UHGV virus genome: UHGV-0108392
DNA length: 26,514 bases
Direction: 5' to 3' (one strand)
From: a virus
Below the pieces are notes generated by a model. The model made no database searches and was not told where the DNA came from. It saw only the letters and a list, made by a program, of their open reading frames with translations. Positions within the stretch are counted from its first letter, which is position 1. Each line of letters begins with the position of its first letter. Position numbers and translations under genes: made by a program. Positions 2,327 to 26,514 of the stretch are shown here, one piece after another.

Positions 2327-3208
2327 TTACATAGATGTTTCGTTTAATTCTTCCCGACGAACGCTGTAAACGTCGGTGGCTTTTGCCAGCAGTTCGTCAT
2401 CATCTGAAAGTTTTTGTGCAATGTATTTGTAAGCCTTATCCAGTTCGGAGACAGTGCTGTAATTCATCGCTGCGCTGGTAAAGGCCATCAGCATTTCTTC
2501 TGGATCACGGCTATCCGCTTTACGCGTTTGCTCATCAGGCTTTTTCACTGGTTTAGCGTTGATCAGACTGTTCATTCCCGCAGCAGTAGTTGTTTGCGGA
2601 GTAATGTCTCGCTCAACGCGCGGTGCCGTTTCCTGTAATTCGTCAGGGGTGTAAACACCAAGAAGTACATCAGGAGCGTGCAGGCGAGCCCATCGTTTCG
2701 TGCAAAGATAGGCAAGTTGCTGGCGCGGATCCTGTTCCCACAATGGAGAGTTACGCACTCCGGCTTGCGCCATACTGATGGTAAGCTCACGTGGTTCTAC
2801 TTCTCCTTTAAGAACTGCTGACACAGTTACCGTCAGATTCGGTGATTTATCTGTTTTGCCGTTAACATTCGACCAGTCACCGCTCCAGCGATAATTAAGG
2901 CGTGTCGCTAGCAGGCTGGAAGAGGATACGACCGCGTTTACCAACTGTGCTTCGTAGCCTAACGTTCCGTTTACCACATGCGTTTTCTGCGCCACGGCGA
3001 AAGGGTTCATTCCCCACTGTGCCGCCTGCATGGTCACCGCCAGGCAATCGGCAGGTTTGCCTTCAAGATGTTTCGGTACAGTCGCTTTGCTTTGTGACAT
3101 CAACTCCGCGAAACGCACCAGTTGATTCATGCCCTCGGGGCTGAAGATTGCCGCAGCAGTGCCTACAGTTGCGCCTGGTTGTGATGTGATTGCGATATCA
3201 TTGCTCAT
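2327..3208 (-). CDS. Single-strand annealing protein (RecT/Redbeta family recombinase)
   Basis: 293-aa protein with a C-terminal segment (PRVERDITP...) recalling lambda Bet (PERDITPV). Its ATG overlaps the exonuclease stop (ATGA coupling), the classic exo/SSAP pair. Confidence 0.7.
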   Translation of the reverse strand: MSNDIAITSQPGATVGTAAAIFSPEGMNQLVRFAELMSQSKATVPKHLEGKPADCLAVTMQAAQWGMNPFAVAQKTHVVNGTLGYEAQLVNAVVSSSSLLATRLNYRWSGDWSNVNGKTDKSPNLTVTVSAVLKGEVEPRELTISMAQAGVRNSPLWEQDPRQQLAYLCTKRWARLHAPDVLLGVYTPDELQETAPRVERDITPQTTTAAGMNSLINAKPVKKPDEQTRKADSRDPEEMLMAFTSAAMNYSTVSELDKAYKYIAQKLSDDDELLAKATDVYSVRREELNETSM

Positions 3209-4026
3209 ACGTACATATCCTGTTTACGTGCCCAGTCAGGGCGTTTAATAATTTCCACTCCGCCCCATTCATCGTTGATGCGGCATTCGTGATAGGTATT
3301 CAGATCCCGGCGGAACAGAGCGTGCCCGGCATCGACATCTGGCGCATCCAGCTCGAACACGCGTACCGGATACCGACCACAATCAATGCTTTCGCTCACG
3401 GCAAGAAAGAAAAAACCATGCGGCTGACCAGTAACCCTCATTGCGCCTTCGCGGTACATTGCGTCCTGCACGTGGTAGCGGAATTCCTCGATGTGGCGTG
3501 CAAAACGGTCCATATCTGCAACCTTTTTCACGTCGACGATCACGTTGTGCTCGTTCAGCCATTTGTCTGGACGAATTCGGCACAACTCACCCGTCTCTTC
3601 ATCGTTCCAGTACATTGATGCTTCGCAGTAACCAGGTGCTTCCAACATCCAGCGTGCCGCCGGATGAGCCATTGCGCTATCACGCATCAGCTCCAGTTTT
3701 CGCCACTGCTCGACATCAAGTACCGTAATACCCATATCCGCCACATCACGAAGAAATGCTTCTTCGTCAGCTTTACCTTGTTTTGTCCGACGATCGAATT
3801 TCGGTGAAACGATGAAGCGTTTGTCGAATTCTCCAGGTTCCAGAAGCAGGCAGTGCAATGCGGTTCCCATATCCAGTGCAGACTTTTTCTCTTCGTCTTC
3901 TGGTGCTGCCTGAACCCATTTAAGAAGCGCCGGATTCTTGGCAACCATGTCCAGTTGCGACTTACTCACGCCGTCACCTGCGTGGTAGTCTTCGTTGCTG
4001 ATGTCGAAATAAATTCCCGGTTTCAT
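3205..4026 (-). CDS. PD-(D/E)XK exonuclease (RecE/exonuclease VIII C-terminal-domain-like), partner of the annealing protein
   Basis: 273-aa protein with a D...(D/E)xK-type motif (NVIVDVKKVADMD), translationally coupled to the downstream RecT-like gene. Confidence 0.7.
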   Translation of the reverse strand: MKPGIYFDISNEDYHAGDGVSKSQLDMVAKNPALLKWVQAAPEDEEKKSALDMGTALHCLLLEPGEFDKRFIVSPKFDRRTKQGKADEEAFLRDVADMGITVLDVEQWRKLELMRDSAMAHPAARWMLEAPGYCEASMYWNDEETGELCRIRPDKWLNEHNVIVDVKKVADMDRFARHIEEFRYHVQDAMYREGAMRVTGQPHGFFFLAVSESIDCGRYPVRVFELDAPDVDAGHALFRRDLNTYHECRINDEWGGVEIIKRPDWARKQDMYV

Positions 4027-4482: not shown

Positions 4483-4573
4483 GTTACCTCGGTCTGTTAC
4501 CGTTGAGGTAATAATTATGCGTATTTGGTTTGATGTCAATAGATATGAGTTAAGAAAATTACCTATTAGGTAA
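4483..4573 (-). promoter_or_regulatory. Leftward early promoter region (pL-like) with flanking operator palindromes
   Basis: Minus strand carries a perfect TTGACA -35 followed by an AT-rich -10 region (CATAATTAT). It is flanked by the perfect palindrome TTACCTATTAGGTAA (4559-4573) and by inverted arms TTACCTC...GAGGTAA (4483-4510) overlapping the RBS of the first ORF. Confidence 0.45.
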
Positions 4574-4630: not shown

Positions 4631-5215
4631 TTATTGTTTGTTTTTTTCGTTCTGGTTGATGACAAATTCAATGTAACTTTCGATCTTTGCTTTCTCGGTT
4701 TCGGGTAACAATGCGTAGCGCGAGCGGTCATAGTTGATGGTCGCAGGGTCGTGCGGGTGAATCAGTAATTCATAGCCGTGACGCCCGAATGCGGATGCAA
4801 CATTCTCCAGGGTGGAAATGGAAACGCTGACCTCATTGTTTAACAGGCGGCTGATTGTCACCTGGGCGACGCCGGATGCGCGGTGAAGTTTTCCCTGAGT
4901 TGAAAGGTCGCGGCTTTCGCTCATCCAGCGTTCCAGGTTGTGAGCCGCCAGCTGACCAATGTCGCTTGGGCCGACAGGCTGAAAACCTTCCTGAGAAAGC
5001 GAGCGATCGATATCAAGCCAGTTACGTGGTTTATTGGCGGCAGCTTCAATTTTTCGCGCAACCTGGTCGCCGATAACCTTCTTGCCAAGAGCCCAGCGGT
5101 TTACCAGATTTGCCTGAGTTCCAAGTTTTTCTGCCATCCGCGTCTGAACACCATTGAATTCACGGTCGATCAAGTCGTTGAGATTTTGCCTGCGGACGTC
5201 CTGGATACTTTTCAT
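4631..5215 (-). CDS. Prophage repressor, two HTH-like segments (XRE/CI type), no S24 peptidase domain
   Basis: N-terminal segment (QTRMAEKLGTQANLVNRWALGKKVIGDQVARKIEAAANKPRNWLD) matches the CI-repressor HTH pattern; a second HTH-like segment lies in the C-terminal half. Divergent from a cro-like gene across an operator-rich intergenic region. Confidence 0.6.
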   Translation of the reverse strand: MKSIQDVRRQNLNDLIDREFNGVQTRMAEKLGTQANLVNRWALGKKVIGDQVARKIEAAANKPRNWLDIDRSLSQEGFQPVGPSDIGQLAAHNLERWMSESRDLSTQGKLHRASGVAQVTISRLLNNEVSVSISTLENVASAFGRHGYELLIHPHDPATINYDRSRYALLPETEKAKIESYIEFVINQNEKNKQ

Positions 5216-5369
5216 TTTCTGGAAAATCGCCTCATATATGAATCAGTAGATGATTCAATTTAAAGCAATATTACCCAACAGGTAAATGCACCTCATGGGT
5301 AACTATCCTTGATTTTTGTTACCTTATGGGTGAATATTTATTATCTGAAATAAATATCAGGCAATAGCT
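5216..5369. promoter_or_regulatory. Divergent promoter/operator switch region between repressor and cro-like gene
   Basis: Three operator-like sites related to TTACCT-N3-AGGTAA at 5271-5285, 5288-5302 and 5319-5333. A rightward promoter candidate (TTGATT at 5309-5314, -10 near 5332-5338) has the third operator inside its spacer. Confidence 0.55.
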
Positions 5370-5600
5370 ATGAGCGATAACGGACATTTCGATTTCAAAA
5401 AGCACTGGCTTGCACTTACTCCGGATGAGCGTGAAGCCTTCGCACAGGAAGCCGGAACGACGAGTCACTATATCCAGACTCACTTAACAGGTAAGCGCAA
5501 AATGCCAGGTAATGTATTGATGGATGGGCTTTTTAAAGCCTGTAAATCAAGACAATGGCTGCGCTCAAAAGCAGAACTGGCATACTTCTTCTACTCATGA
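5370..5600 (+). CDS. Cro-like small HTH regulator
   Basis: 76-aa protein with an HTH-like segment (EAGTTSHYIQTHLTGKRKMP); first gene of the rightward operon, opposite the repressor. Confidence 0.5.
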   Translation: MSDNGHFDFKKHWLALTPDEREAFAQEAGTTSHYIQTHLTGKRKMPGNVLMDGLFKACKSRQWLRSKAELAYFFYS

Positions 5601-5750
5601 TATCCAGCCACAACCCTCTGTAGACCGCCATCCGGCGGTCTTTTCATATCTATTCGTACCTCAAAGGTAATAAAAAACCAAATATGGTTGATCTTTTTTT
5701 TGTGTCAGCACAAAATAACCGTAATCCCAATACTAATAACAGGGCTTACC

Positions 5751-5966: not shown

Positions 5967-6782
5967 ATGAGCAGACATGCAACAGATTGGGCCTGGGAGA
6001 CAGATCCAGGTAGCTCATCATTAAAGCTCATACTGCTCTCGATGGCTGACAGAGCCGATGAATATAACCTCTGCTACCCCAGCATAGAACGCCTCGTTAA
6101 AGACACTTGCCTGAATAAAAAAACCGTGCAGGCCGGGCTTATATCGCTCATGAAAATGGGGCTTATTTCAGATACCGGAGAGAGAAAGGGAGCGACAAAA
6201 AGAGTGCGGGTTTTCTCTCTTAATATAACCAAAAACGGGAACATTAAAGGCAACCGGGAAGGGGGTAATGAACCCGAAAACGGTAATTTTACCGAAAACG
6301 GGAATATACCCAAAAACGGGATGTTGAATGATCCCAAAAACGGGATGTTGAATGATCCCAAAAACGGGATCCAGAACCAGTCATATAACCAGTCATTTAA
6401 CCAAGAGAGGGAGAGCAGGACAAAAAACGGGGATTCTGTGTCTCATGACCCCGGCGCAAACAACGCCGTGATGAATAACTTTGTTCCTCCTGGTGGGCCA
6501 GGGCAATTAGGCAAATTTGTCATGCATGAACAATGGCAACCATCAGATGACTTTCTTCGGAAAAGCTCATTGCAGGGGATCTACCTGGACAGTCTGCCAA
6601 CGGCACAGGAACTTGCAGAGTTCAGAATTTACTGGATGGCTGAGGGTAAGGCATACCATCAGGCACAGTGGGAGCAGAAGCTGGCAAGGAGGCTGCAGAT
6701 TAGCAGACAGAAGCAATCAACATTACCTGATAACAACGTTCCGCACTGGAACAGCCCTGAAGCATGGGAGGATTTCTTGTGA
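5967..6782 (+). CDS. Replication initiator (O-like; N-terminal HTH, C-terminal DnaT-like region) containing the origin iterons
   Basis: N-terminus (DWAWETD...LKLILLSMADRADEYNLCYPSIERLVKDTCLNKKTVQAGLISLMKMGLI) fits phage replication-initiator HTH proteins. A central repetitive linker is encoded by the iterons. Immediately upstream of the P-like gene. Confidence 0.7.
   Translation: MSRHATDWAWETDPGSSSLKLILLSMADRADEYNLCYPSIERLVKDTCLNKKTVQAGLISLMKMGLISDTGERKGATKRVRVFSLNITKNGNIKGNREGGNEPENGNFTENGNIPKNGMLNDPKNGMLNDPKNGIQNQSYNQSFNQERESRTKNGDSVSHDPGANNAVMNNFVPPGGPGQLGKFVMHEQWQPSDDFLRKSSLQGIYLDSLPTAQELAEFRIYWMAEGKAYHQAQWEQKLARRLQISRQKQSTLPDNNVPHWNSPEAWEDFL
6229..6434 (+). repeat. Iteron array (putative origin of replication) inside the initiator gene
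   Basis: Eight or more direct copies of CC(A/C/G)AAAACGG(G), including two perfect tandem 24-mers CCCAAAAACGGGATGTTGAATGAT (6309-6332 and 6333-6356); these encode the repeated P(K/E)NG peptide. Confidence 0.65.
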
Positions 6783-7564
6783 ACAACGTTTTTACCGCGA
6801 TACAAAACCGTGACGGAGAAGCCCTTTCTCGCATGTCAGGTTATGAGCATCAGTACACCAACAATGACAACGTGGTGAACATGTCAGCAGAGAGGCTTGT
6901 TGATGCCCTTTTCAAACAGCTGAAACAACTGTTTCCGGCGGCAGTGGTAACCAACCTGAAGACGCCAGAGCAGGAAGTTGCTGCAAAACAGCAGTGGATT
7001 GCTGCGTTTGCCGAAGGGGGGATCCGAACCCGTGAACAGGTTTCTGCTGGTATGCGCCACGCCCGCGCCAGTGAGTCTCCGTTCTGGCCGTCGCCAGGGC
7101 AATTCATCAAGTGGTGTAAAGACAGCAAGATGGTTCTTGGCGTCACCATTGACGATGTGATGGCGGAGTTTCACCGGTACAGCAAGGAAAAAAGTTTATA
7201 TCCTGGTGGTCCCGAAAGATTCCCGTGGCGACATCCGGTTATGTACTGGGTCGTATGTGATACCCGCCGTGCAATGTATCAGCGCCAGCTTAGCGAGATT
7301 GAGGTTGAGAAACACGCGCGCAGGCTGCTCGATGATTGGGCGAAAAAGGTAGCTTCCGGACAGCAGATACCCGATCCGGTGATCAGCATACAGGCAAAGC
7401 GAGAGCCCATGAGTACACCTCCGGACACAGGGAGAGACGTTTACCATCCACCAGGGCGAAGTTTCGGGTGCATGCCTAACGCCGCCACCCTTGGGGGAAT
7501 AACACCGGCGCAGTGGCTGATGGAGGAATACAGGCGGGGAAAGGCGGCAGGATTTATCAAGTAA
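6779..7564 (+). CDS. Replication protein P-like (DnaB helicase loader)
   Basis: Clear similarity to lambda P as recalled (REQVSAGMRHARASESPFWPSPGQFIKWCKDS versus lambda MEQVNAGMRVARRQNRPFLPSPGQFVAWCREE). A GTG at 6779 has a GGGAGG RBS and overlaps the O-like stop; an alternative ATG lies at 6764. Confidence 0.8.
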   Translation: MNNVFTAIQNRDGEALSRMSGYEHQYTNNDNVVNMSAERLVDALFKQLKQLFPAAVVTNLKTPEQEVAAKQQWIAAFAEGGIRTREQVSAGMRHARASESPFWPSPGQFIKWCKDSKMVLGVTIDDVMAEFHRYSKEKSLYPGGPERFPWRHPVMYWVVCDTRRAMYQRQLSEIEVEKHARRLLDDWAKKVASGQQIPDPVISIQAKREPMSTPPDTGRDVYHPPGRSFGCMPNAATLGGITPAQWLMEEYRRGKAAGFIK

Positions 7565-7602
7565 TACCAGCGCGATAGCGCATTTTTTTACGCCTCAATG
7601 AT

Positions 7603-7678
7603 TACCTATCAGGTAACAAAATATTCTAAACTCTATTGATTTCGTGTCTTATGTGGTTTTTAATTACCTAAGAGGTAA
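7603..7678 (+). promoter_or_regulatory. Promoter with two operator palindromes upstream of the nin-like gene cluster
   Basis: TTGATT (7636-7641), 17-bp spacer, TTTAAT (7659-7664). Perfect palindromes TTACCTATCAGGTAA (7603-7617) and TTACCTAAGAGGTAA (7664-7678) flank and overlap the -10/RBS. Confidence 0.5.
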
Positions 7679-7681
7679 ATC

Positions 7682-8026
7682 ATGAGAAAACAGATACAGG
7701 CTCTTGGTCGACTCAAAACAGGCCAGATGAACAAAACAGAATCTGCGTATTGCCAGCACCTTGAGCTGCGTAAACGTGCAGGAGAAATCGTCTGGTATCG
7801 ATTTGAGGGTATCAAGCTGCGGTTAGCTGACAACACGTTCTATACGCCCGATTTTGCTGTGATGCTCGCCACCGGCGAGATGGAACTGCACGAAGTGAAA
7901 GGTTTCTGGACCGACGACGCCAGGGTGAAAACCAAAGTCGCCGCAGATCAGTATCCGTTCCGAATCATCGGGGTAACGGTTAAACCAAAGAAAGCAGGTG
8001 GTGGCTGGAACATCGAAGAGTTCTGA
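7682..8026 (+). CDS. DUF1064-family protein (putative PD-(D/E)XK-like nuclease)
   Basis: 114-aa protein with the YTPDF...HEVKG motif pattern recalled for DUF1064 phage proteins. Confidence 0.55.
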   Translation: MRKQIQALGRLKTGQMNKTESAYCQHLELRKRAGEIVWYRFEGIKLRLADNTFYTPDFAVMLATGEMELHEVKGFWTDDARVKTKVAADQYPFRIIGVTVKPKKAGGGWNIEEF

Positions 8027-8087
8027 ATCGACGATCTTTTTAGTTATCAATGTAATCAATAAGTTATGTGGATAAGCGAGGGTAAAG

Positions 8088-8588
8088 ATGGAAAGTAATA
8101 TCAAAGGGTTAGTTTCCGCCGGGCATGAGATGGCTTCGGAACTGAAAGCAGAATGTGGTGCCGTTGATATGCGCAGTGTGGCAAAGCTGATCAGCGATTT
8201 GGCAACGCAACTGGAAGTGCAACTGGTGCGTGCTAATGCGCTGGCCGAAGACCACCAGAAAGCGATTGAGTCAATTAAGCAGGCTGATTCGGCTGTTAAG
8301 TTGGCACACGAGAAGTTTTCAGCGCTGGCGGCGGAGAATGCTGGGCTGAAACATGCAATGGCTGTAACTCTTGAGCATGTGTCGGTCACGGATGCAGGGC
8401 AGGCTGGTGTTGCTGCAATGATTATCAACGATGCCCTACACCACAGCGAAACTCCAGCCACCGATGCTTTTCTGGCTGAAGTACGTGCGCAGGGCGTGGA
8501 GATGTTTGCGGAGTGTGCATACACACTTGAACATCATGATCACGCAGTAGCTTTTGCCGCCGAGCTACGTGAAGGAGGCAACAAGTGA
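8088..8588 (+). CDS. Hypothetical coiled-coil phage protein
   Basis: 166-aa Ala/Glu-rich ORF with RBS; no confident family assignment. Confidence 0.5.
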   Translation: MESNIKGLVSAGHEMASELKAECGAVDMRSVAKLISDLATQLEVQLVRANALAEDHQKAIESIKQADSAVKLAHEKFSALAAENAGLKHAMAVTLEHVSVTDAGQAGVAAMIINDALHHSETPATDAFLAEVRAQGVEMFAECAYTLEHHDHAVAFAAELREGGNK

Positions 8589-8884
8589 CTGTATGTCTTA
8601 TTGATAAACGTCGACGTGGGCAACAAATACCATCTGTTGAAATGCCGAATCACACATGGTTTTGCGTACTTGATATCGATGGTATGGATACGTTGATCGA
8701 CACTCGTCATTACTGCGATACCGCAACAGCTACTCCTGCAAAAGCAAAGAAAATGGCTGCTCTGATAGAAAACTGGACTCCACCTGATGGTTGGTGCAAT
8801 GGGAATGATCGAGATTGGCACGAAAAAATGAAGGGCTATATCTGCGATTTTTTACGTAAATGCAACGGATTCAGGGTGATGTGA
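8585..8884 (+). CDS. Hypothetical protein
   Basis: GTG start overlapping the upstream stop (GTGA); Cys/His/Trp-containing 99-aa product. Confidence 0.4.
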   Translation: MTVCLIDKRRRGQQIPSVEMPNHTWFCVLDIDGMDTLIDTRHYCDTATATPAKAKKMAALIENWTPPDGWCNGNDRDWHEKMKGYICDFLRKCNGFRVM

Positions 8885-8885
8885 T

Positions 8886-9284
8886 ATGACCAAAATTAAC
8901 TATCAGGCACTGCGTGAGGCGGCAGAGCGTGCAATTCCGGCAATGGAACGCCTGTTAATGTTGCCAGTTGATGATGATCTGATAAGCGAGCAGGAACTTA
9001 AAGATAGCGGTGTTGATATTGATGCGCTCAATGCCTTCAAAATTCTGGCCGGACCAGAAAGCGTGCTGGCGCTACTGGATGAACTAGAAGCTAAAAACAA
9101 ACGCATTACAGAACTGGAAGCGAGGGAAGTTCAATTACCGACTCGCTACGACCTTCGATATGGGCACCCAATAAATGCTAATAAGCGGCATGTCATGATA
9201 CCTAAAGAAAATGGCAGTTGGCTTTGCCTGATTGACTTAGAACACGCACTACGCGTCGCTGGCATTCGCATCAAAGGAGAGTGA
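8886..9284 (+). CDS. Ead/Ea22-like protein
   Basis: N-terminal INYQALREAAERA... and coiled-coil LLDELEAKNKRITELEA pattern typical of lambdoid Ea22-like proteins. Confidence 0.5.
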   Translation: MTKINYQALREAAERAIPAMERLLMLPVDDDLISEQELKDSGVDIDALNAFKILAGPESVLALLDELEAKNKRITELEAREVQLPTRYDLRYGHPINANKRHVMIPKENGSWLCLIDLEHALRVAGIRIKGE

Positions 9285-9285
9285 T

Positions 9286-9651
9286 ATGGCACTGACGAAA
9301 AAACAACGTGCAGAGCTGCGCATGAAGTTCGGCGGTCGCTGTGCTTATTGCGGCTGCGAACTTGGCGAAAAGTGGCATGCAGACCATGTAAAACCGGTCA
9401 TTCGTTTTGCTGGAAATATGCTTCACCAGGAACGTGACGATATATCCAACATGGTTCCGGCATGCCACCCATGCAATCTGCACAAGCATTGCAGCAGCCT
9501 GGAAGATTATCGGCGAATTATCAGTGATGGTCGTCGTGAATTCCTTGCGTCCGGGAAAGGCAAAGCGCTGGTTCGTATGGGATTGGTTGAAATGAAATCT
9601 GACCCGATTGTGTTCTGGTTTGAAAAATATCAAGAAGGGGCTACGGCATGA
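9286..9651 (+). CDS. HNH endonuclease
   Basis: CAYCGCEL...HADHVKP...PACHPCNLHK: HNH motif with paired Cys zinc ligands. Confidence 0.75.
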   Translation: MALTKKQRAELRMKFGGRCAYCGCELGEKWHADHVKPVIRFAGNMLHQERDDISNMVPACHPCNLHKHCSSLEDYRRIISDGRREFLASGKGKALVRMGLVEMKSDPIVFWFEKYQEGATA

Positions 9652-10037
9652 CCACTATTACCAGAGAAAACGCGGAAATTAAATCATTCATCACTGGTTT
9701 CCTGAGCGACCCGGCGCACGATAACCAATCTTCAAACAGCCTGCTTGCCAATGTGTTTCGTATTGCACTGGTATCGCTGGAAGCAAAACCAATAGGTGCA
9801 TTTCACATTGCAGAACAGCAAGTTGACGGCACAAGTGACTACATCAAGGATGGGGAGTGGCCTATTGATAATGGAATTATTGAGGTCTACGCCGCTCCAC
9901 CCGTTCCAGTAGTACCGGAAGAAAAACCAATGCCTAATCCTCTTAGCATGTACGCGGTTGATGCTGTTGCTGCTATTGCAGAGGTGAGAGGCTGGAACGC
10001 CTGCCGTGCCGCTATGCTTCAGGGAAAAGGAGAGTGA
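9648..10037 (+). CDS. Hypothetical protein; N-terminus paralogous to the next gene
   Basis: Starts MTTITRENAEIK; the next gene starts MTTITDKKQYP, and both are preceded by an identical 16-nt initiation cassette. Confidence 0.45.
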   Translation: MTTITRENAEIKSFITGFLSDPAHDNQSSNSLLANVFRIALVSLEAKPIGAFHIAEQQVDGTSDYIKDGEWPIDNGIIEVYAAPPVPVVPEEKPMPNPLSMYAVDAVAAIAEVRGWNACRAAMLQGKGE

Positions 10038-10038
10038 T

Positions 10039-10611
10039 ATGACCACTATAACCGATAAGAAACAGTATCCCAGCGATCAATATCTTAATGAGCTGATCAC
10101 CAACATGGAGTTTGCTGCAAGGGCACCAGTTGAAGTCGTGAGAGTGATGGCAGCAGAGCTACAGAAGCGGCGCGAAGCTGATAGTGCAGAACCTGTAAGC
10201 CAAACTTACAACTTGCCACAAACGCACTTTGAACAGGTTGCTGACCTTTACGAAATGCAATTTGAGGATGGACGCACTTGTGCCTTTCATACTGATGCGA
10301 AAAAGGCTGCGCAATGGCTTCAGTCATGTGACGGAAACAGGGTTCAGGAATATGTGAAGCTGGAGCGGTTGCAGAACGCGCTGTCTGGCAACTCTCCGGT
10401 AACTCAGGATGGCTGGATAAGCTGTAGTGAGCGAATGCCAAACGAAGAAGATGTTTTGGTTTATTGCTCAGACACAAAAGAGCAGATGGTAGGGTTTCAC
10501 AAAGGTAAAGGGTTATTTCAATTCTTTTACATGAATGGTGTTGAGGGGGTATGTGAGCCGTCACACTGGATGCCACTACCAGAACCGCCGCAGGAGGTTA
10601 ACCGTGGCTAA
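10039..10611 (+). CDS. DUF551-like phage protein
   Basis: C-terminal DGWISCSERMPNEEDVLVY...HWMPLPEPP pattern recalled for the DUF551 phage domain; AAGGAGAG RBS before the ATG at 10039. Confidence 0.5.
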   Translation: MTTITDKKQYPSDQYLNELITNMEFAARAPVEVVRVMAAELQKRREADSAEPVSQTYNLPQTHFEQVADLYEMQFEDGRTCAFHTDAKKAAQWLQSCDGNRVQEYVKLERLQNALSGNSPVTQDGWISCSERMPNEEDVLVYCSDTKEQMVGFHKGKGLFQFFYMNGVEGVCEPSHWMPLPEPPQEVNRG

Positions 10612-10885
10612 CCTGCAACTTGCCGTCAAAGGTGAATATTTCGACCAGATGAAGTCAGGCGAGAAAACGGAAGAGTATCGCCTGTGTAATGACTACTGGA
10701 ATAAGCGAATTATGTTCCGGGAGTATGACCGCCTGATTATCACAAAGGGATATCCGAAGCGCGACGATTCCTGCCGCAGAATTGACGTCCCGTATGACGG
10801 ATATGAAATCAAGACAATCACACATCCGCACTTCGGTGATAAACCGGTAAAGGTGTTCGCGATAAAGGTAAATATTGATGGCTAA
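10604..10885 (+). CDS. ASCH/DUF3850-like small protein
   Basis: GEYFDQMKSGEKTEEYRLCND...REYD pattern resembling ASCH-fold proteins; GTG start at 10604 preceded by CAGGAGG. Confidence 0.45.
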   Translation: MANLQLAVKGEYFDQMKSGEKTEEYRLCNDYWNKRIMFREYDRLIITKGYPKRDDSCRRIDVPYDGYEIKTITHPHFGDKPVKVFAIKVNIDG

Positions 10886-11216
10886 ATCAGCAGCAGAGCG
10901 CAAAGCCGCTCAGAGAGCCAGACAAGCTGCATCTGGTGTGCGTAAGCTGGAGATTGTGCTTGATGCTCAGGAAATTGAAATGCTGGAGCGTAACTGTGCC
11001 ACACGTCGCCCCGGGCGTGCGCCTTACGAATTTGGTGAGTATATAGCGTTACTGATCTGCCAGGATGATGCACGCGTGCGCGGGCGTATAAAATCGATCA
11101 GCAGAAAACGTTGCGGTAAGTGCGGCGAGAGAGTTCCTGTGAATTCATGCCCGTGTAATGGTGACTCGCAATGCTGGGTGACTAAAGGCTGGCATGAAAC
11201 GAAATTAATAGTGTGA
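10878..11216 (+). CDS. Hypothetical Cys-rich protein (CGKCG...CPCNGDSQC)
   Basis: ORF overlapping the upstream stop; basic N-terminus and a Cys cluster suggest a zinc-binding, possibly DNA-binding protein. Sits where a late regulator might be expected, but there is no direct evidence for that role. Confidence 0.45.
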   Translation: MAKSAAERKAAQRARQAASGVRKLEIVLDAQEIEMLERNCATRRPGRAPYEFGEYIALLICQDDARVRGRIKSISRKRCGKCGERVPVNSCPCNGDSQCWVTKGWHETKLIV

Positions 11217-11233
11217 CATGTCACGAAGGTGTT

Positions 11234-11446
11234 ATGCCAAAAATACGCTACGACCTTGAAGATATGAGAGATAACTCAGCAAATTTTCCGAAAGAGGTTA
11301 AATTTCTCATGCATAAGTATGGTTGCGCCAGGAGGGATATAGTTATCGACAGTCAGCACCCTTGCGGCGAGGATGTAATTTTCATTCGCGGTAAATGGGA
11401 AGGGTATCTTGACGAGAGTTTTTACGATGAATTTGATGGACTTTGA
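11234..11446 (+). CDS. Hypothetical small protein
   Basis: ATG at 11234 with AAGGTG RBS; the track's 11213 start lies inside the GTGACATGTCAC palindrome. Confidence 0.4.
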   Translation: MPKIRYDLEDMRDNSANFPKEVKFLMHKYGCARRDIVIDSQHPCGEDVIFIRGKWEGYLDESFYDEFDGL

Positions 11447-11520
11447 ATACTGCCGCCAACTATGGCGGCTTTATTTTGCATGGTACTATTACCACAACGG
11501 TAACTATTACCAAGGTGGTT

Positions 11521-12117
11521 ATGATGCCTGCTGAACCTAAAACCTATAAACGCAAATCAACGCAATTTAAGCCACTAACAGCAATGCAGGAGGCTTATTG
11601 CCAGTCATACATCAAAACGCCTGAAAACCAGACTCAGGCAGCGATTAACGCAGGATTCTCCCCAAATACAGCGGCAGTTAAAGCCAGTGTCATGATGCGC
11701 GATGAACGCATTCAAAAACGGATTGCCGAGTTGATGGAGGAGCGCAACAAACGAATGCGCGTCAGTGCTGATTACGTTCTCATGCGCCTGGTGGAGATCG
11801 ACCAGATGGACGTGATCGACATCCTCAACGACGATGGGAGCCTTAAACCAATCCGTGAGTGGCCGAAAATCTGGCGCACTACGCTTAGTGGCTTTGATCT
11901 GTCATCGACCATCATGAACATGAACGAGGATTCGATAGAGACAATCCTCAAAAAAATTAAATGGCCTGACAAGGTGAAGAACCTTGAGCTGATTGGTAAG
12001 CATGTTGATGTCAACGCGTTCAAAGAACGTCTGGATGTTAATGTGAATGTGACAATTGCTGATCGCATAGCAGCAGCCAGGAAGCGACTCAAAGAACGTC
12101 AGGATGGTAATCAGTGA
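11521..12117 (+). CDS. Terminase small subunit
   Basis: Immediately upstream of, and overlapping (GTGA), the large terminase gene; N-terminal region (QEAYCQSYIKTPENQTQAAINAGFSPNTAAVKASVMMRDERIQKRI) resembles terminase small-subunit HTH domains. The true start is probably ATG 11521 (AAGGTGG RBS) rather than the track's 11443. Confidence 0.6.
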   Translation: MMPAEPKTYKRKSTQFKPLTAMQEAYCQSYIKTPENQTQAAINAGFSPNTAAVKASVMMRDERIQKRIAELMEERNKRMRVSADYVLMRLVEIDQMDVIDILNDDGSLKPIREWPKIWRTTLSGFDLSSTIMNMNEDSIETILKKIKWPDKVKNLELIGKHVDVNAFKERLDVNVNVTIADRIAAARKRLKERQDGNQ

Positions 12118-13589
12118 CAGATACAGCGTTATCTCCTGAAGAGCAGTTGATCGAGGATATTGCAGGGTTCACTCACGATCCGCTTGGTTATGCCCTCTAT
12201 GCGTTCCCGTGGGGGGAAGAGGGGACTGAACTGGCACATGCCACCGGTCCACGTCAGTGGCAGGCCGATGCGTTCCGAGAGATACGTGATCACCTGCAGA
12301 ATCCAGAGACGCGCTATCAGCCGCTTATGCTGGCACGCGCTTCTGGTCACGGTATTGGTAAATCCGCATTCATCTCAATGCTGATCAACTGGGGCATGTC
12401 CACTTGCGAGGATTGTAAGGTCGTGGTGACCGCCAACACCGACAACCAGCTACGAACGAAGACTTGGCCGGAAATTATCAAGTGGTCGAACCTTGCTATC
12501 ACGAAAGACTGGTTTACCTGTACCGCTACCGCGATGTACAGCAATGATCCTGGGCACGACAAGCGGTGGCGAGCTGACGCAATCCCCTGGTCTGAGCACA
12601 ACACTGAGGCATTCGCCGGACTACACAACGAGCGCAAACGCATCATCGTGGTATTCGATGAAGCGTCGAACATTGCGGATCTGGTGTGGGAAGTTGCCGA
12701 GGGTGCGCTAACGGACGAAGACACTGAGATTATCTGGGTGGCGTTCGGAAACCCGACGCGTAATACCGGACGTTTCCGCGAATGTTTCCGCAAATATAAA
12801 CACCGCTGGAAAACTGCGCAGATTGACAGCCGGACGGTGGAAGGCACTAACAAACAGCAGTTGCAGAAATGGGTTGATGACTACGGGGAAGACAGCGACT
12901 TCGTTAAAATCCGTGTGCGCGGCATATTCCCGGATGCATCTGAATTGCAGTTTATCCCTACCGGACTTACTGACGAGGCAATGAAACGGGTGGTCACCGC
13001 TGCGCAGGTTGCACATGCTCCGGTGATAATCGGCGTTGACCCGGCATACTCAGGCGTTGATGATGCGGTGATATACCTGCGGCAGGGGCTGCACAGTAAG
13101 GTGCTGTGGACCGGCAACAAGACCACTGACGATCTGATTATGGCAAAGCGTATCGCTGACTTTGAAGACCAGTATCAGGCTGACGCGGTGTTCATCGACT
13201 TCGGTTACGGAACTGGTCTGAAGTCAATCGGTGACGGCTGGGGTCGTACATGGCAACTTGTTCCGTTCGGTGGCGCGTCTACTGACCCGCAGATGCTCAA
13301 TAAGCGCGGGGAGATGTTCAACTCATGCAAGACGTGGCTGAGGCTGGGCGGCATGCTTGATGACCAGGAAACAGCGGACGACCTGTCGGCGGCAGAGTAC
13401 AAAGTTCGAGTGGACGGTAAAATCGTTATCGAACCGAAGGAAGATATCAAGGAGCGGCTTGGGCGTTCTCCTGGTAAAGGCGATGCGCTACTGCTGACGT
13501 TTGCGTTCCCTGTGTCGAAGCGTCTGCGAATTCCCGGGCAGCAGAACCAGCAAGGCAAGGCCATCACAGATTACGATCCATATGCTTAA
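12114..13589 (+). CDS. Terminase large subunit
   Basis: Walker A-like ARASGHGIGKS, Walker B-like VVFDEASN, C-terminal nuclease-type region; 491 aa. Confidence 0.85.
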   Translation: MTDTALSPEEQLIEDIAGFTHDPLGYALYAFPWGEEGTELAHATGPRQWQADAFREIRDHLQNPETRYQPLMLARASGHGIGKSAFISMLINWGMSTCEDCKVVVTANTDNQLRTKTWPEIIKWSNLAITKDWFTCTATAMYSNDPGHDKRWRADAIPWSEHNTEAFAGLHNERKRIIVVFDEASNIADLVWEVAEGALTDEDTEIIWVAFGNPTRNTGRFRECFRKYKHRWKTAQIDSRTVEGTNKQQLQKWVDDYGEDSDFVKIRVRGIFPDASELQFIPTGLTDEAMKRVVTAAQVAHAPVIIGVDPAYSGVDDAVIYLRQGLHSKVLWTGNKTTDDLIMAKRIADFEDQYQADAVFIDFGYGTGLKSIGDGWGRTWQLVPFGGASTDPQMLNKRGEMFNSCKTWLRLGGMLDDQETADDLSAAEYKVRVDGKIVIEPKEDIKERLGRSPGKGDALLLTFAFPVSKRLRIPGQQNQQGKAITDYDPYA

Positions 13590-14697: not shown

Positions 14698-14712
14698 TTA
14701 CCTCAAAGGTAA
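14698..14712. promoter_or_regulatory. Perfect operator palindrome TTACCTCAAAGGTAA upstream of the structural-gene module
   Basis: Same 15-bp palindrome as at the early promoters; a perfect TTGACA lies on the minus strand at 14734-14729 next to it. Confidence 0.4.
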
Positions 14713-20509: not shown

Positions 20510-22560
20510 TGGCTATCAGTTGGATCCAGCCCAGCTTTGCCGGTGGTGAGATTGGACCGTCGTTGTACGGTCGTATCGACATGGCGAAGTACCAGGTGGC
20601 ATTGCGCAAGTGCGATAACTTTATCGTGCGGCAGTATGGCGGCGTTGAGAATCGACCTGGTACGCGTTTTGTCGGTGCCGCCAAATACCCAAATCGGAAA
20701 TGCCGCCTGATCCCGTTCCAGTTCTCGACGGTTCAGACCTATGCTCTGGAGTTCGGGCACCAGTACATGCGCGTTATCAAAGATGGTGCGTTGGTGCTGA
20801 ACAGCAGCAATGTTATTTATGAAATTGCCACGCCATATACTGAAGCCGATCTGTTCCGAATTAAATTTACGCAAAGCGCCGACGTGCTTACGCTGGTTCA
20901 CCCGGCATACCCGCCGAAAGAGTTGCGCCGCTATGCGCATGACAACTGGCAACTGGTTGATGTGGTAACGAAGAACGGGCCATTTGAAGATATCAATATT
21001 GACGAGTCAGTGACGGTTTATGCCAGCGCCAGCACCGGGACAATTACGTTAACAGCAAGCGCCTCTATTTTTGGCGCGGAGCAGGTAGGCAAATTGTTCT
21101 ATCTGGAACAGCCTGCAGTGGATTCAGTGCCGGTATGGGAAACCAGTAAGAGTACGTCGATTGGCGATATTCGCCGTGCAGACAGTAACTACTATCGCGC
21201 CGTTACAGCAGGCAAAACAGGCACTTTGCGCCCTTCGCATACAGAAGGCACATCATGGGATGGCTGGGGCGGATCCGGTGATGATGATACTGGCATTGAG
21301 TGGGAATATCTGCACAGTGGTTTTGGCATTGCCCGTATCACTGCTGCAAATGGAACTACTGCAACTGCCGAGGTGATTTCCTATATCCCTTCGCAGGTCG
21401 TTGGCGAGGATAATGCCAGCTATAAATGGGCTAAATATGCCTGGAACAGTGTTAATGGTTATCCTGGCACTGTTGTTTATTATCAACAACGTCTTTACTT
21501 CGCCGCATCGACTGCGTTCCCTCAGACTATCTGGGCCAGCCGTACCGGGGATTATAAGGATTTTGGCAAAAGCAATCCTACGCAGGATGACGACAGAATT
21601 ATCTACACCTATGCCGGGCGTCAGGTTAATGAGATCCGCCACCTGATTGATGTCGGTTCGCTGGTGGCACTGACTTCCGGAGGTGAGTACGTCATCACCG
21701 GCGACCAGAACAAAGTGTTAACCCCATCATCATTTGCATTCAGCTCTCAGGGATCAAATGGCTCGAGCAATGTCCCACCAATTGCTGTGGCGAATATTGC
21801 TCTGTTCGTCCAGGAGAAAGGCAGCGTTGTCCGTGATCTGGCCTACTCATTCGATGTTGACGGCTATCAGGGGAACGACCTGACCATCCTTGCCAATCAT
21901 CTTTTTCAGAAGCACAGCATTGTTGACTGGTGCTTCTCGATTGTCCCTTACTCCAGCGCCTTCTGCATTCGTGATGACGGTAAATTACTGGTGATGACCT
22001 ATTTGCGTGATCAGCAGGTTTTTGCATGGGCACCACAGTCCAGTACCGGAAAATATGAAAGCACATGCAGTATCAGCGAAGGCAATGAAGATGCGGTGTA
22101 TTTCGTCGTTAACCGAACCGTTAACGGGCAAGCAGTGAGATACATCGAGAGACTGTCCAGCCGTTTATTTACCAGCGATGAAGACGCTTTCTTTGTTGAT
22201 TCTGGCCTTAGCTATGATGGAAGAAATACGTCTGACAGAACGATGATCATCACTGGTGGTTCTGGTGAATGGGATTACCGCGCGGAATATACAATCAGTG
22301 TTTCTGGTGGTGCGTACTTCACCAGTAGTGATGTCGGTGCGCAACTACAGTTCCCTTATGCCGGAACTGATCCTGATACTGGCGATGAAGTGTCAAAAGA
22401 ATTACGTTGCGACATTATTTCTGTAACCAGCAATACCGCTGTAGTGGTTCGTCCTAACAGGAACGTCCCGCCATCCCTCAGGAATGTGGCCACCACGAAC
22501 TGGCAGATGGCGCGCCGGGCATTTGGCGGCTTGTCTCATCTTGAAGGTCAGACCGTAAAC
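20509..22560 (+). CDS. Tail protein (tail tubular B / nozzle-like by synteny); phage-derived N-terminal ~684 codons of an ORF that runs in frame into foreign DNA
   Basis: Enterobacterial-type composition and codon usage up to about 22560; the same ORF (track 20509..24012) then continues in frame into lower-GC sequence, so the native 3' end is missing. Functional call is by gene order only. Confidence 0.45.
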
Positions 22561-22599
22561 ATGGATGAAGTCAATTTCTTTGCCAAGAGGATGAAAAGC

Positions 22600-24012
22600 A
22601 TGACGGAATATGAAAGAAAAGTTCTGTCAGCGTATGCTGAGGATTATGGTGTGGCTACCATGCAGGATTTAATCAATCTGACATTCAGCATGAAAGGTCT
22701 TTCATTGCTTACAGATTTTTCAGATGCCAGACAGGTCGGGGAACGTCTTTACTTGGATGAATTCTTGGGAATATCAGAAGAAGAAAAAGCGCAGACCAAC
22801 TTTATTGAGTTTGCGGAAAAAACCTTAAAGGAGAGCCGGGTGGAAGTCCTGCCCTATGGAGTTTTTGTAGAGCATGGCTTTGAAATGCAGGAAGTGTACA
22901 ATGGAAAAACATTTCCGTCTTTCGTTGCATCGGATGAGACTGTGGCAATTGTCGAGTTACAGAACAAAGCCGGAGATACAGAGTATCTGTACCTGCCAAC
23001 GGATATCAGTTCCATGAACAAGGTAAAGGAGCGGTTGCAGGTGCAGGATTATTGGGAGATGGAAGTAACCGGAATTGAAAACCTTCGTTTACCGGATATC
23101 CTTGTACCGATGCCGGAAAACATTGATTGTGTGGAAGCACTGACATTATTTAATGAGACATGTCAGGCGGTAAAACGTTTTGATGAAGTGCAGATGACGC
23201 AGCTTGCGATGGTGGTAGAATTTACCGGATTTAGTAGTTCTACTGAGGTGACAAGTATTGCAAGACTGCTTGGGGAATTTGAAGTGAATCCTTTCGTACA
23301 CAATGATGAAGAGTATGGAAAGTACATGGTGGAAGAGTCCGGGTTATTTGATGTGGATGAGTTATTGCTCCCTCATATTAATTATGCAGCCTTTGCAGCG
23401 GATAAGAGACAGGGAACACTTGTGCAAAGTGGTTATGTAGAAAATGGTTTTGTGGGAGCCACCAGAGAACTTTCAGAGTACCAGCAGTATAATGGAGAGT
23501 TTGCTGATCCGTTAGAAATTGATGAAGACTGCTATGAAACATTTAAACTTTATAGTCCGCTGACAGGAAATTTATTTGAAGGTGGCTGTGAGCGGGGAAA
23601 CTTATATCGTAGCGATCTGACACCGTATGCGGAGGAAATTGCAGAAACCATTGAAAATGAATATTGTGTCGGGGAAGAGCCAAGAGGTCTCATGCATTAC
23701 TTTGATAGAAGTCTGGTGGTGGCGGCGAAAGTAATGTCTGCATATCCCAAGGTAGAGATTGTGGATGGCGAAGTTTATGGTGTGCTGGAATGTAAAGTCA
23801 GTGAAGCATTAACAGAGCATGATATTGAAGTGTTAAAGGAATATTGGACCGGACAGATGAGTGACGGATGGGGTGAAGGCTTTGAACAGCATCCAATTTT
23901 AGTAGAGGACGGAGAAATCTATGTCAGTTTTTGGAACAGCGAGAATTTCTGGAATGTTATGACCGAGGAGGAACTGATGGGAGGACAGGTTCAGGGAATG
24001 GATATGTGCTAA
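22600..24012 (+). CDS. Hypothetical acidic protein, Firmicutes-type (about 470 aa if it starts at ATG 22600)
   Basis: AAGAGG RBS 9 nt before ATG 22600; Glu/Asp/Tyr/Phe-rich; GAA/GGA/AAG-heavy codon usage unlike the upstream phage genes. The true N-terminus may lie upstream of the junction. Confidence 0.4.
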   Translation: MTEYERKVLSAYAEDYGVATMQDLINLTFSMKGLSLLTDFSDARQVGERLYLDEFLGISEEEKAQTNFIEFAEKTLKESRVEVLPYGVFVEHGFEMQEVYNGKTFPSFVASDETVAIVELQNKAGDTEYLYLPTDISSMNKVKERLQVQDYWEMEVTGIENLRLPDILVPMPENIDCVEALTLFNETCQAVKRFDEVQMTQLAMVVEFTGFSSSTEVTSIARLLGEFEVNPFVHNDEEYGKYMVEESGLFDVDELLLPHINYAAFAADKRQGTLVQSGYVENGFVGATRELSEYQQYNGEFADPLEIDEDCYETFKLYSPLTGNLFEGGCERGNLYRSDLTPYAEEIAETIENEYCVGEEPRGLMHYFDRSLVVAAKVMSAYPKVEIVDGEVYGVLECKVSEALTEHDIEVLKEYWTGQMSDGWGEGFEQHPILVEDGEIYVSFWNSENFWNVMTEEELMGGQVQGMDMC

Positions 24013-24068
24013 TAAATATATTGAATCCGCCTAAAGAAAAGAATCAAGGAGATTGAGGAAGGAGAATC

Positions 24069-24815
24069 ATGTTAAGAAGAGAAGAAGTAGAACGCATTAA
24101 GGAACAGTACCCGAAAGGTACGCCCATTCGTCTTTACAGCATGGAAGGGGAGCAGACAGTGCCGCCGGGGAGCCGGGGAGTTGTAGACCATGTGGATGAC
24201 ATCGGGCAAATCCATATGAAGTGGGAGAACGGAAGCTCCCTTGCATTAAATGTGGAAGAAGACCGCTTCGATATCATCACACAGCAGGATGAATTATGTG
24301 AAAAGAAAGAGCAGGAGTTTATTGACAAGATAAATGAAATCTTGGACAAGACAGATTTCCTGCTCTTAAATACGTCCTGTAATACGGAGAATACATCCTA
24401 TGCTGCCGAGAAGCTCCTTGCCATGCATCAGGCATTCGAGGAAGTGTATGGAGAAGGGTATGTGGATGAAAGCTATGGTATGATTATGGTGCCTGCGGTG
24501 GTAAGAGGAAGGGAATCCGGCATACAGACCCTTGCGTTGGTAACACTGGACTTGGAATCATCCGGTGAGCATTGGGGTACTACATTCCTTACACCGGGAG
24601 GACCATTGGTGCAGGGACATGCAGAGCTTACGGAGGAGCAGAAGCGTGCCATCAGGGAATACTATATTCCCTACGATTATTGGTACACACCACTCGTTGA
24701 ACGTGACCACCATGTGAACTTTACGGATATGCCGGAGACAGTTGCAGACATCCGCAGGCTGGTGGATGAATCCTTGGTGACAGGACAGGCACAGCAGATG
24801 GAGGGACCGAAATAA
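24069..24815 (+). CDS. Hypothetical protein, Firmicutes mobile-element type (possibly DUF4314-like N-terminus)
   Basis: GGAGGAAGGAG RBS; N-terminus (IKEQYPKGTPIRLYSMEGEQTVPPGSRGVVDHVDDIGQIHMKWENGSSLAL) resembles a small domain I recall from Firmicutes conjugative-element proteins. Family assignment is from memory and uncertain. Confidence 0.45.
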   Translation: MLRREEVERIKEQYPKGTPIRLYSMEGEQTVPPGSRGVVDHVDDIGQIHMKWENGSSLALNVEEDRFDIITQQDELCEKKEQEFIDKINEILDKTDFLLLNTSCNTENTSYAAEKLLAMHQAFEEVYGEGYVDESYGMIMVPAVVRGRESGIQTLALVTLDLESSGEHWGTTFLTPGGPLVQGHAELTEEQKRAIREYYIPYDYWYTPLVERDHHVNFTDMPETVADIRRLVDESLVTGQAQQMEGPK

Positions 24816-24832
24816 AGGAGAGGAGGACATAA

Positions 24833-25834: not shown

Positions 25835-26246
25835 AAAAGGCTGTATTGAAATTCCCATTGTATTGCTTGCACAGACAGGCATCTGTATCGGGGAGGAGGT
25901 AAATCTGATTTATCTTGCCGCAGGGGAGAAGGATTACCGTAATGAATCAAGGGAATTCATGTTGAAAAGAGCCGGGGAAAATCCATTGGAGGAGCTGCAG
26001 AGTGGGGAAACGGAGTTGAAACTGCCGCCACAGTTGCTTGCAGATGCACACATTCCCTTGGATGCAGACCTGGACATTGTCTGCTTGGATAGAAAAATTG
26101 TGATTCTGCCTACGGAGGATGTGGAGTCAGAGGATGTACCCAAAGAACTTCTGGATATCTGTGCAGAGCTTGGCATCCCCAGAGAAAAAGTAAACATTGT
26201 TTTGCGTATGACCGAGGAGGGGAGCGATGAAAAAGCCGGTGTATAA
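25797..26246 (+). CDS. Protein with two AbrB/SpoVT-like (swapped-hairpin) segments
   Basis: ATG at 25797 with GGAGGA RBS, overlapping the methyltransferase 3' end; two segments (IEIPIVLLAQTGICIGEEVNL and ELKLPPQLLADAHIPLDADLDIVCLDRKIVILP) resemble AbrB/MazE-type DNA-binding hairpins. Confidence 0.45.
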   Translation: MVQLVEITGVLNEKGCIEIPIVLLAQTGICIGEEVNLIYLAAGEKDYRNESREFMLKRAGENPLEELQSGETELKLPPQLLADAHIPLDADLDIVCLDRKIVILPTEDVESEDVPKELLDICAELGIPREKVNIVLRMTEEGSDEKAGV

Positions 26247-26514
26247 GCTGTTAGATGAAAAGGGCAGGGTACTGATACCTTTGGAAATGCGACAAAAAGC
26301 GGAGATGGAGAAAGGGGATATCTTAAAGGTTTCCATAAACTCCGGGAAGATTGTTATATCCAAGGTAGACATTTTAGAGGTAGGAAAGCAGGATGCAGAA
26401 GCTGTGGAGGCTTATGTCCATGCAGCCGTAAAGACCATGAGCCATGAAAAGCAGGTGGCACTTGCCGCGAGGATTTTGAAACTTGCACAGCAGGAGGGAG
26501 GAGCGGATTGCTAA
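26227..26514 (+). CDS. AbrB/SpoVT/MazE-family small DNA-binding protein
   Basis: VYKLLDEKGRVLIPLEMRQKAEMEKGDILKVSINSGKIVISKV matches the AbrB-type swapped-hairpin pattern; overlaps the upstream gene by 20 nt; its stop codon is the last 3 nt of the window. Confidence 0.5.
   Translation: MKKPVYKLLDEKGRVLIPLEMRQKAEMEKGDILKVSINSGKIVISKVDILEVGKQDAEAVEAYVHAAVKTMSHEKQVALAARILKLAQQEGGADC

Follow-up and report, generated by a model that had tools for sequence, protein, structure and literature searches.

What makes two gene boundaries in a phage operon identical to the base, when the sequences on either side of them are not alike? We addressed this question in the virus genome UHGV-0108392, a stretch of 26,514 nucleotides (hereafter the window) from a phiV10/TL-2011b/PAS61-like temperate podophage of Escherichia coli (Uetakevirus). 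Between its replication and packaging genes lie ten short, tightly packed genes on the + strand (7682-11446, named here g1 to g10), as recognised in a first-pass annotation made from the sequence. The same 16-mer, AAAGGAGAGTGATATG, stands at the g4/g5 and g6/g7 boundaries (Table 1). Both copies contain the upstream codons for K-G-E, the stop TGA, one spacer base (T) and the downstream ATG; the KGE stop and the ATG had been described in that annotation. We call this element the KGE cassette. We think it likely that it is a dual-purpose junction, serving as a translational-coupling signal placed in the last codons of one gene and as an in-register crossover point for phage annealing recombinases.

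The repeat is not a product of chance, a possibility that we rejected because only 0.01 copies of the 16-mer were expected and none of 100 shuffled sequences had two. There was no third copy in the window with up to two mismatches. The Shine-Dalgarno (SD) sequence of the cassette, AAGGAG, is embedded in the codons for K-G-E (AAA GGA GAG), six bases 5′ of the ATG. Wherever we examined it, in the window (both copies) and in related loci, the cassette covers the upstream stop and the downstream start. The two window copies are alike only in the 16-nt core. Neither forms an RNA or DNA structure (folding z-scores of -0.11 and +0.16), and Rfam gave no match at E ≤ 1.

The first-pass annotation had proposed such boundaries as conserved joints for module shuffling, and had named, as the outcome that would speak against it, a cassette found in no other genome and always flanked by the same gene pairs. 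We found the opposite, i.e., a widespread cassette with shuffled partners. An exact scan of IMG/VR identified the 16-mer in at least 120 viral contigs, of which 116 complete junctions were analysed. These junctions joined 43 upstream to 38 downstream DNA clusters in 79 pairings, and 95 of them formed a single connected network (24 upstream and 20 downstream clusters, 60 pairings). Reassortment was also seen at the protein level, where the last 12 residues upstream and the first 8 residues downstream were removed before clustering: 10 upstream and 10 downstream families occurred in 35 pairings among 89 junctions. Of 209 pairs of junctions with a shared upstream and a different downstream cluster, 194 lost their similarity precisely at the ATG. 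On the upstream side similarity continued for 5 nt (median), often for 8-12 nt, and this stretch is the GGCATTCGCATC tail. The tails before the cassette include ...RAAGIRIKGE, ...RAAMLQGKGE, ...RAAAAGKGE and ...NHLRTKGE, each followed by the stop codon.

Ascertainment on the 16-mer was avoided with a second set of loci, gathered by protein homology to the window genes. Nearly all g4 homologues in this protein-selected set end in the cassette or in a one-base variant (TGAGATG or TGATGTG). At the cassette, about 18 different genes follow a 48-nt gene end that is itself the same in every case. Among 56 distinct 5′ junctions of g7 homologues, about 10 carry the cassette and the rest are of other types.

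The cassette is abundant in phages and in their hosts. A 37-nt form, CGCGCCGCTGGCATTCGCATCAAAGGAGAGTGATATG, was found in 375 phage records (Stx, lambda-like, P22-like and phiV10-like phages, and P7) and in 1617 of the 5426 complete E. coli genomes (30%), in up to five places per genome; 194 of these places are on plasmids. The upf88.3/upf89.0 junction of P7 is an exact cassette and the hkaG/hkaF junction of HK620 a one-base variant. These two phages are 96% identical over 158 nt ending at the cassette, and share nothing beyond. The lambda gene ea22 ends ...DAGIRIKGE with AAAGGAGAGTGAGATC, and the subsequent ATG is lost: it reads ATC (positions 1045-1080 of our locus L288, which is lambda 28800-32100), and no gene follows ea22 for about 190 nt. 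In three IMG/VR loci (L022, L057 and L102) an intact ATG opens a 7-codon mini open reading frame (ORF), MSRNTGL, before lambda-like downstream sequence. The window itself has only islands of 30-58 nt in common with lambda, HK620 and P7, including 9246-9290, and these islands lie at the elements that we describe in this article.

The region is a hot spot of mosaicism, in that no phage record covers more than 37% of 7682-11446. Six Uetakevirus relatives are 96-98% identical to the window in the flanks (on the left into g2, on the right from g9 on), and each has a different gene set in between. Both recombinant junctions that can be predicted from the repeats of the window were found in other contigs. 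In L029 and L194 the GIRIKGE tail and the 16-mer are joined directly to the N-terminus of g7, and g5-g6 are absent, which is the product expected from a crossover between two KGE copies. In L335, g5 is joined directly to g7 via the head that g6 and g7 share, and g6 is absent; the gene (L335, 1483-2243) that immediately follows an HNH gene with 97% identity to g5 is a chimera of an N-terminal segment of g7 (window 10039-10196) followed by a C-terminal segment of g6 (window 9877-10022). Segments are thus permuted within genes in this chimera, not just between them. Overall, the segments g4N, g4C, g5, g6, g7N, g7C and g8 (N- and C-terminal parts where so marked) were found in at least 25 combinations. 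A single IMG/VR contig is identical to the window (100%) at g4, g5 and g7, and the complete window arrangement occurs only in the one matching contig.

The KGE cassette has sister elements. We ranked 14-mers of the protein-selected loci by the diversity of their contexts, with no candidate chosen beforehand. The top-ranked set comprised the DUF551 island (first), the KGE cassette (13 x 17 contexts), AACCGCCGCAGGAG, GGAGGCAACCAGTGA and the LASLEA island. The sequence AACCGCCGCAGGAG is the NRG junction of g7/g8, and GGAGGCAACCAGTGA is the GGNQ junction, which has a K variant at g2/g3; the GGNQ variant was found in 20 x 11 distinct contexts in these loci. KGE, GNQ and NRG are the three commonest C-terminal tripeptides, KGE being the first and GNQ the second among 5770 distinct ORF ends of the protein-selected loci. 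The window has five such junctions, of four types. In the fourth type, g5 homologues always end in EGATA with an ATGA overlap, and are followed by at least 8 different genes headed MTT[I/F]T (80 best loci).

Two consecutive genes, g6 and g7, do begin with MTTIT as first noticed, and 14 of the 15 nt are identical (ATGACCACTAT[T/A]ACC). The accompanying suggestion of paralogous N-termini did not hold. BLASTP similarity between g6 and g7 was not significant beyond the five-residue head, which led us to reject their paralogy, and the shared 15-nt head stands on at least 19 gene bodies. With up to two mismatches, this head has 126 distinct occurrences, with 19 body clusters after it and 33 upstream clusters before it.

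The conservation of the cassette concerns the DNA. Among 70 distinct K/RGE ends, 67 read exactly AAAGGAGAG-TGA-N-ATG/GTG (AAA-GGA-GAG), and the codons AAA-GGA-GAG were found in 14 of 17 independent contexts, compared with about 6% predicted by codon usage. Therefore, the constraint is on the nucleotides, not on the peptide. We also scanned one genome per bacterial species (596 Gb) for the 19-mer ATCAAAGGAGAGTGAKATG. Of the 28 matches, just four represent the phage element: two in Escherichia, one in Shimwellia and one in a metagenome-assembled genome that was probably mis-binned. A wide taxonomic spread was rejected for this reason. The other 24 are chance matches, barely above the number expected (about 9, by estimate). 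In unrelated bacteria, 22 of these 24 chance occurrences precede an open frame. Hence, the sequence behaves as a ribosome-binding site.

In summary of the observations, the cassette is shared, is conserved at the nucleotide level and has shuffled partners, and similarity breaks exactly there. We infer translational coupling and homologous recombination as the processes behind this pattern. AAA GGA GAG, the three sense codons with which the upstream gene closes, at the same time hold the SD sequence (AAGGAG) of the next gene. This cassette ends lambda ea22 and many other, unrelated accessory genes in temperate phages of E. coli and Salmonella. The cassette, usually extended 12-30 nt upstream into the conserved tail ...RAAGIRIKGE and present in identical form in many co-circulating phages and prophages, would offer a short patch of homology for crossover in register, which would keep both ORFs and the coupled start. 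Single-strand-annealing recombinases of phages, in the window RecT together with its exonuclease, would be the likely catalysts. Genes and gene segments would be shuffled as crossovers recur at the cassette and at its sister elements (the GGNQ, NRG and EGATA junctions, the MTTIT head, and the LASLEAEP and DUF551 islands inside genes).

Several points weigh against this explanation. Recombination is deduced from its products, and only products are seen. The context clusters on which the counts of pairings are based are not phylogenetically independent. The 16-nt core is shorter than the published minimal lengths for efficient pairing, 23-27 bp for Red-beta and 31-34 bp for RecA (PMC3945230), and outside it the window copies have little in common. 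As the cassette makes a good ribosome-binding site, part of its conservation has a functional cause and need not stem from selection for exchange. Many junctions in the same families lack the cassette (only about 10 of the 56 distinct 5′ junctions of DUF551 genes use it), many mosaic breakpoints are intragenic, and lambda retains the cassette although the next ATG is lost. Because the core is shorter than known minimal pairing lengths, the extended homeology of tails and heads probably matters for pairing. The common extended cassette is identical over 28-48 nt, which reaches the published lengths, and phage Rad52-like recombinases are able to recombine short, diverged sequences (PMC3945230). 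Homologous recombination at conserved boundary sequences is an accepted model for some lambdoid phages, credited to Susskind and Botstein and, from work on HK620, to Clark et al. 2001 (PMC3233612, PMC2327257).

The most serious alternative is that the cassette is kept only as a coupling signal: illegitimate recombination would produce joints at random, selection would keep those that are in register, and recombination would not be targeted. Illegitimate recombination is the prevalent model of phage mosaicism (PMC2327257, PMC3233612). The ribosome-binding behaviour of the sequence in unrelated bacteria speaks for this alternative, as do the other junction types, which follow the same logic. Yet, function permits many sequences, whereas 67 of 70 ends are identical in nucleotides, and the 24 occurrences of the 19-mer in 596 Gb outside enterobacterial phages hardly exceed chance. 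Random breaks would not repeatedly give an identical joint of at least 16 nt across 35 family pairings, with breaks exact to the edge. We thus consider an untargeted origin unlikely, if still worth serious thought.

It is much less probable that the K/RGE C-terminus is a functional peptide, e.g., an interaction or stability signal of Ea22-like proteins, with the identity of the DNA as a by-product. Dydecka et al. 2020 reported that all Ea22 proteins end in K/RGE and left the significance of the motif open (PMC7093339), and a loosely conserved W-x3-RAA segment does precede the KGE tail. However, there is nearly no synonymous variation in the three K/RGE codons, the stop or the spacer, and K/RGE ends at least ten unrelated protein families, while the residues adjoining it vary non-synonymously (GIRI, VICI, NIGI, MLQG, AAAG, HLRT). 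Judging from these sequences, the K/RGE of Ea22 is probably the translated footprint of the junction cassette, i.e., of an SD sequence in the last codons and a recombination linker.

The homologues of g5 raise a last alternative. They are 94-100% identical among the best 80 of 469 IMG/VR loci (L319-L398) and both of their neighbours vary, as expected for a gene that has recently been spreading and may be selfish; in these 80 loci at least 8 upstream junctions precede them, each arranged as TGA-N-ATG. An active site-directed mechanism, by homing of the g5 HNH nuclease to the cassette or by an integron- or PeSL-like structured site, would suit such a spread and the position of g5 directly after cassette copy 1, but it is hardly credible, as most g5 homologues follow another junction (AAGGAAAGCTGATATG) and their upstream contexts are mostly non-KGE, most cassettes have no HNH neighbour (2 of the 116 cassette junctions precede an HNH gene), and the cassettes have no structure (z about 0), no Rfam match and no associated integron-type integrase.

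Beyond the dual-purpose cassette itself, we tentatively raise a broader idea, which we hold to be possible and rather doubtful. The KGE, GGNQ, NRG and EGATA junctions and the MTTIT head could form a pool-wide 'splice grammar' of in-frame, translation-competent linkers across at least five phage genera, kept because they would allow in-register exchange of any accessory gene by RecT/Red-type recombinases. If true, this would represent second-order selection for evolvability. It would also make the 45-year-old Botstein linker hypothesis directly testable on an element of 16-48 nt, and would explain the K/RGE end of Ea22.

Table 1. Genes, junction elements and other features of the window, by position.
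Feature	Position	Strand	Remarks
RecT-family single-strand annealing protein	2327-3208	-	PF03837, 2.6e-31; outside the cassette region
PDDEXK exonuclease (DUF3799)	3205-4026	-	RecE/YqaJ-like partner of RecT
TTACCT-N3-AGGTAA sites	4497-4511, 4559-4573, 5271-5285, 5319-5333, 5480-5494, 5656-5670, 7602-7616, 7664-7678, 11489-11503, 14698-14712		
DnaT-like gene	5967-6782		Left flank of the accessory operon
Lambda-P-like replication gene	6764-7564		Left flank of the accessory operon
g1	7682-8026	+	DUF1064; PHROG 190, 'Holliday junction resolvase'-type nuclease; first gene of the operon
g2	8088-8588	+	Eae-like, PHROG 492
GGN(Q/K) junction, GGAGGCAACAAGTGA	8574-8588	+	SD GGAGG in the last g2 codons; GTG of g3 overlaps TGA
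g3	8585-8884	+	DUF7739 (3.4e-21); GTG start
g4	8886-9284	+	Ead/Ea22-like, PF13935 (9e-19)
KGE cassette, copy 1	9246-9288	+	Tail ...RVAGIRIKGE into core AAAGGAGAGTGATATG (9273-9288), then ATG of g5
g5	9286-9651	+	Small HNH endonuclease
EGATA junction, AAGGGGCTACGGCATGA	9635-9651	+	ATGA stop/start overlap of g5/g6
g6	9648-10037	+	Uncharacterised; PHROG 5117/660
MTTIT head, copy 1, ATGACCACTATTACC	9648-9662	+	Start of g6
LASLEAEP-type intragenic island, FRIALVSLEAKP	9759-9791	+	In g6; common to many otherwise different genes; homology blocks begin there
KGE cassette, copy 2	9990-10041	+	Tail ...WNACRAAMLQGKGE into the 16-mer core (10026-10041), then ATG of g7
g7	10039-10611	+	DUF551 domain at the C-terminal part
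MTTIT head, copy 2, ATGACCACTATAACC	10039-10053	+	Start of g7
DUF551-start island, DGWISCSERMP	10395-10439	+	In g7; highest-ranked context-diverse sequence
NRG junction, CAGGAGGTTAACCGTGG	10591-10607	+	SD AGGAGG in the g7 tail; GTG of g8 inside the tail
g8	10604-10885	+	Putatively ASCH-like (PUA-like fold); GTG start
g9	10881-11216	+	Cys-rich; PHROG 536, 'transcriptional regulator'
g10	11234-11446	+	Small protein, PHROG 1541
Terminator-like hairpin and T-run	11452-11479 (hairpin 11452-11469)	+	Strongest in the region; closes the operon before the small terminase
Small terminase	11524-12117		Right flank of the operon; Pfam Terminase_2

The region is an accessory early operon of a phiV10-like temperate phage, with 'ea'-type genes at the position of lambda nin. 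On the whole, megablast of window positions 1-25000 against phages showed 97.8% identity with vB_EcoP_PAS61 over about 80% of these 25 kb. No promoter-like site was found on the + strand at 7400-12200, no internal promoter or terminator within 7682-11446, and no terminator-like hairpin before 11360. Since internal signals were not found and a terminator-like hairpin follows g10, g1-g10 make up one operon. The ten genes are packed stop-to-start, and their translation is probably coupled.

Family searches confirmed the labels DUF1064, Ea22-like, HNH and DUF551 that had been given from the sequence, and g9 is Cys-rich as stated. In the six Uetakevirus relatives g1 is 96-98% identical and the N-terminal part of g2 is kept, with intragenic mosaic breakpoints at about 8245-8350. 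The protein of g4 matches PF13935 with 68.8 bits (gathering cut-off 27) and ends in GIRIKGE. Its N-terminal coiled-coil part (8886-9085) and its C-terminal part (9090-9284) assort independently in other phages. The N- and C-terminal parts of g7 likewise assort independently. A PDB sequence search with g4 gave no significant match. The g6 protein is made of the MTTIT head, an internal RIALASLEAEP-type island and the ...WNACRAAMLQGKGE tail. The ASCH-like label of g8 fell short of the Pfam family threshold (PF04266, E = 0.068, below the cut-off). Relatives at 95% identity carry the NCBI name ASCH, and the top PDB matches of an AlphaFold (AF2) model (predicted local distance difference test score of 88.6) are the ASCH-domain structures 3iuw, 5gus and 9kyh. 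These matches are modest, with probabilities up to 0.99, template-modelling scores of about 0.5-0.6 and a best E of 1.7e-2, none reaching E ≤ 0.001. The g8 protein appears ASCH-like at the fold level only.

The gene g9 is present in all six Uetakevirus relatives (83-98% conserved). It lies close upstream of the terminator and of the packaging and late genes, with only g10 between. It is a candidate late-gene regulator, because no Q antiterminator is present. The body of g10 (11227-11425) is missing from the same six relatives (L121-L126), which retain its first bases and last codons, fused into an 8-codon mini-ORF, MHDEFDGF. This is a further gene-sized indel bounded by a retained head and tail. 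NCBIfam gave no useful names for the ten proteins, and PADLOC found no defence system among them, only a generic HNH similarity to PtuB. The anti-defence or host-takeover functions that the first-pass annotation raised for several of them are hypothetical.

The operon had been described as nin-like. This is right for the position, after the replication genes and before packaging and the late genes, and like lambda nin it consists of small, tightly packed, dispensable-looking genes. It is not right for the gene families. No nin family passes the Pfam threshold among the ten genes, the only signal being a sub-threshold match of g5 to NinG/Rap (20.0 bits, cut-off 25.4), and in place of a Q antiterminator, which was not found, the terminator and the small terminase gene follow the operon. 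The families are of the lambda exo-xis or P22 ea (early-left) type, i.e., Ea22, Ead, Eae and DUF551, and relatives are annotated as Ea22, Eae and EaA.

A few features near the operon may concern its expression. Directly after the P-like gene, a GC hairpin (GCGC-GATA-GCGC) followed by a T run at 7571-7590, seen by eye and not reported under the scan criteria, may be a weak terminator between the replication genes and the accessory operon. The palindrome TTACCT-N3-AGGTAA has 10 sites in the window with up to two mismatches, where 0.6 were expected and none of 100 shuffles had as many. The sites cluster around an HTH (helix-turn-helix) repressor-like gene (4631-5215, - strand) and have the appearance of operators. 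Immediately 5′ of g1 are two perfect sites, spaced by 62 bp as are those at 4497 and 4559. If the palindromes are operators, g1-g10 may have their own repressor-controlled promoter. A possible -35 (TTGATT) and -10 (TTTAAT) are found upstream of g1, at 7636-7664.

Elsewhere in the window, the leftward early region encodes an MT-A70 family adenine methyltransferase (977-1639, - strand). The stretch 22563-26514 is beyond the end of the phiV10-like similarity, matches 8 phage records (the best with 14% coverage at 83% identity) and is probably a novel tail or host-range module. The matches of window positions 1-25000 included 64 Synechococcus phage records, which is unexpected for a phage of E. 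coli; the matching stretch is absent from 22500-26514.

The cassette is a sharply resolved case of the linkers described by Susskind and Botstein 1978, Botstein 1980 and Clark et al. 2001 (HK620), and not a new kind of system. In both cases, lambdoid genomes that otherwise differ have a short boundary sequence in common, the modules flanking it vary, and homologous exchange is proposed; HK620 itself has the cassette at hkaG/hkaF. The cassette differs in being defined to the base, in lying inside coding sequence and in doubling as the SD sequence of the next gene, and its partners were counted over hundreds of genomes from several phage genera. It gives the same three C-terminal residues as the K/RGE motif of lambda and Stx-phage Ea22 (PMC7093339). 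That motif was described in proteins, whereas our data point to a nucleotide element, combining SD, stop, start and linker, with which proteins outside the Ea22 family end as well. The T4-type PeSL cassettes (Arbiol et al. 2010, PMC2839356) are also short conserved regulatory elements that flank small accessory ORFs and for which shuffling has been proposed. However, PeSLs are intergenic early promoters with stem-loops and give each ORF its own transcription, whereas the cassettes described here are promoterless, unstructured and in frame within an operon, and would act on translation. Integrons, too, have arrays of small exchangeable genes with recurrent junction elements (attC). Unlike attC, the cassettes have no hairpin-forming imperfect inverted repeat and no integron integrase, and their exchange presumably relies on general or phage homologous recombination rather than on a site-specific process.

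The origin of phage mosaics is still debated between homologous exchange at short linkers and random illegitimate joining followed by selection, and De Paepe et al. 2014 left about 70% of mosaics unexplained. Lambda and about 30% of complete E. coli genomes contain the cassette, a defined element (16-48 nt) with dozens of partner combinations. It is therefore an easy substrate for a direct recombination experiment. Through it, the Ea22 'K/RGE motif of unknown significance' can be read in a simple way. There is also a consequence for annotation: in ea-region proteins, neither the C-terminal tail nor the N-terminal head should be taken as a sign of protein homology.

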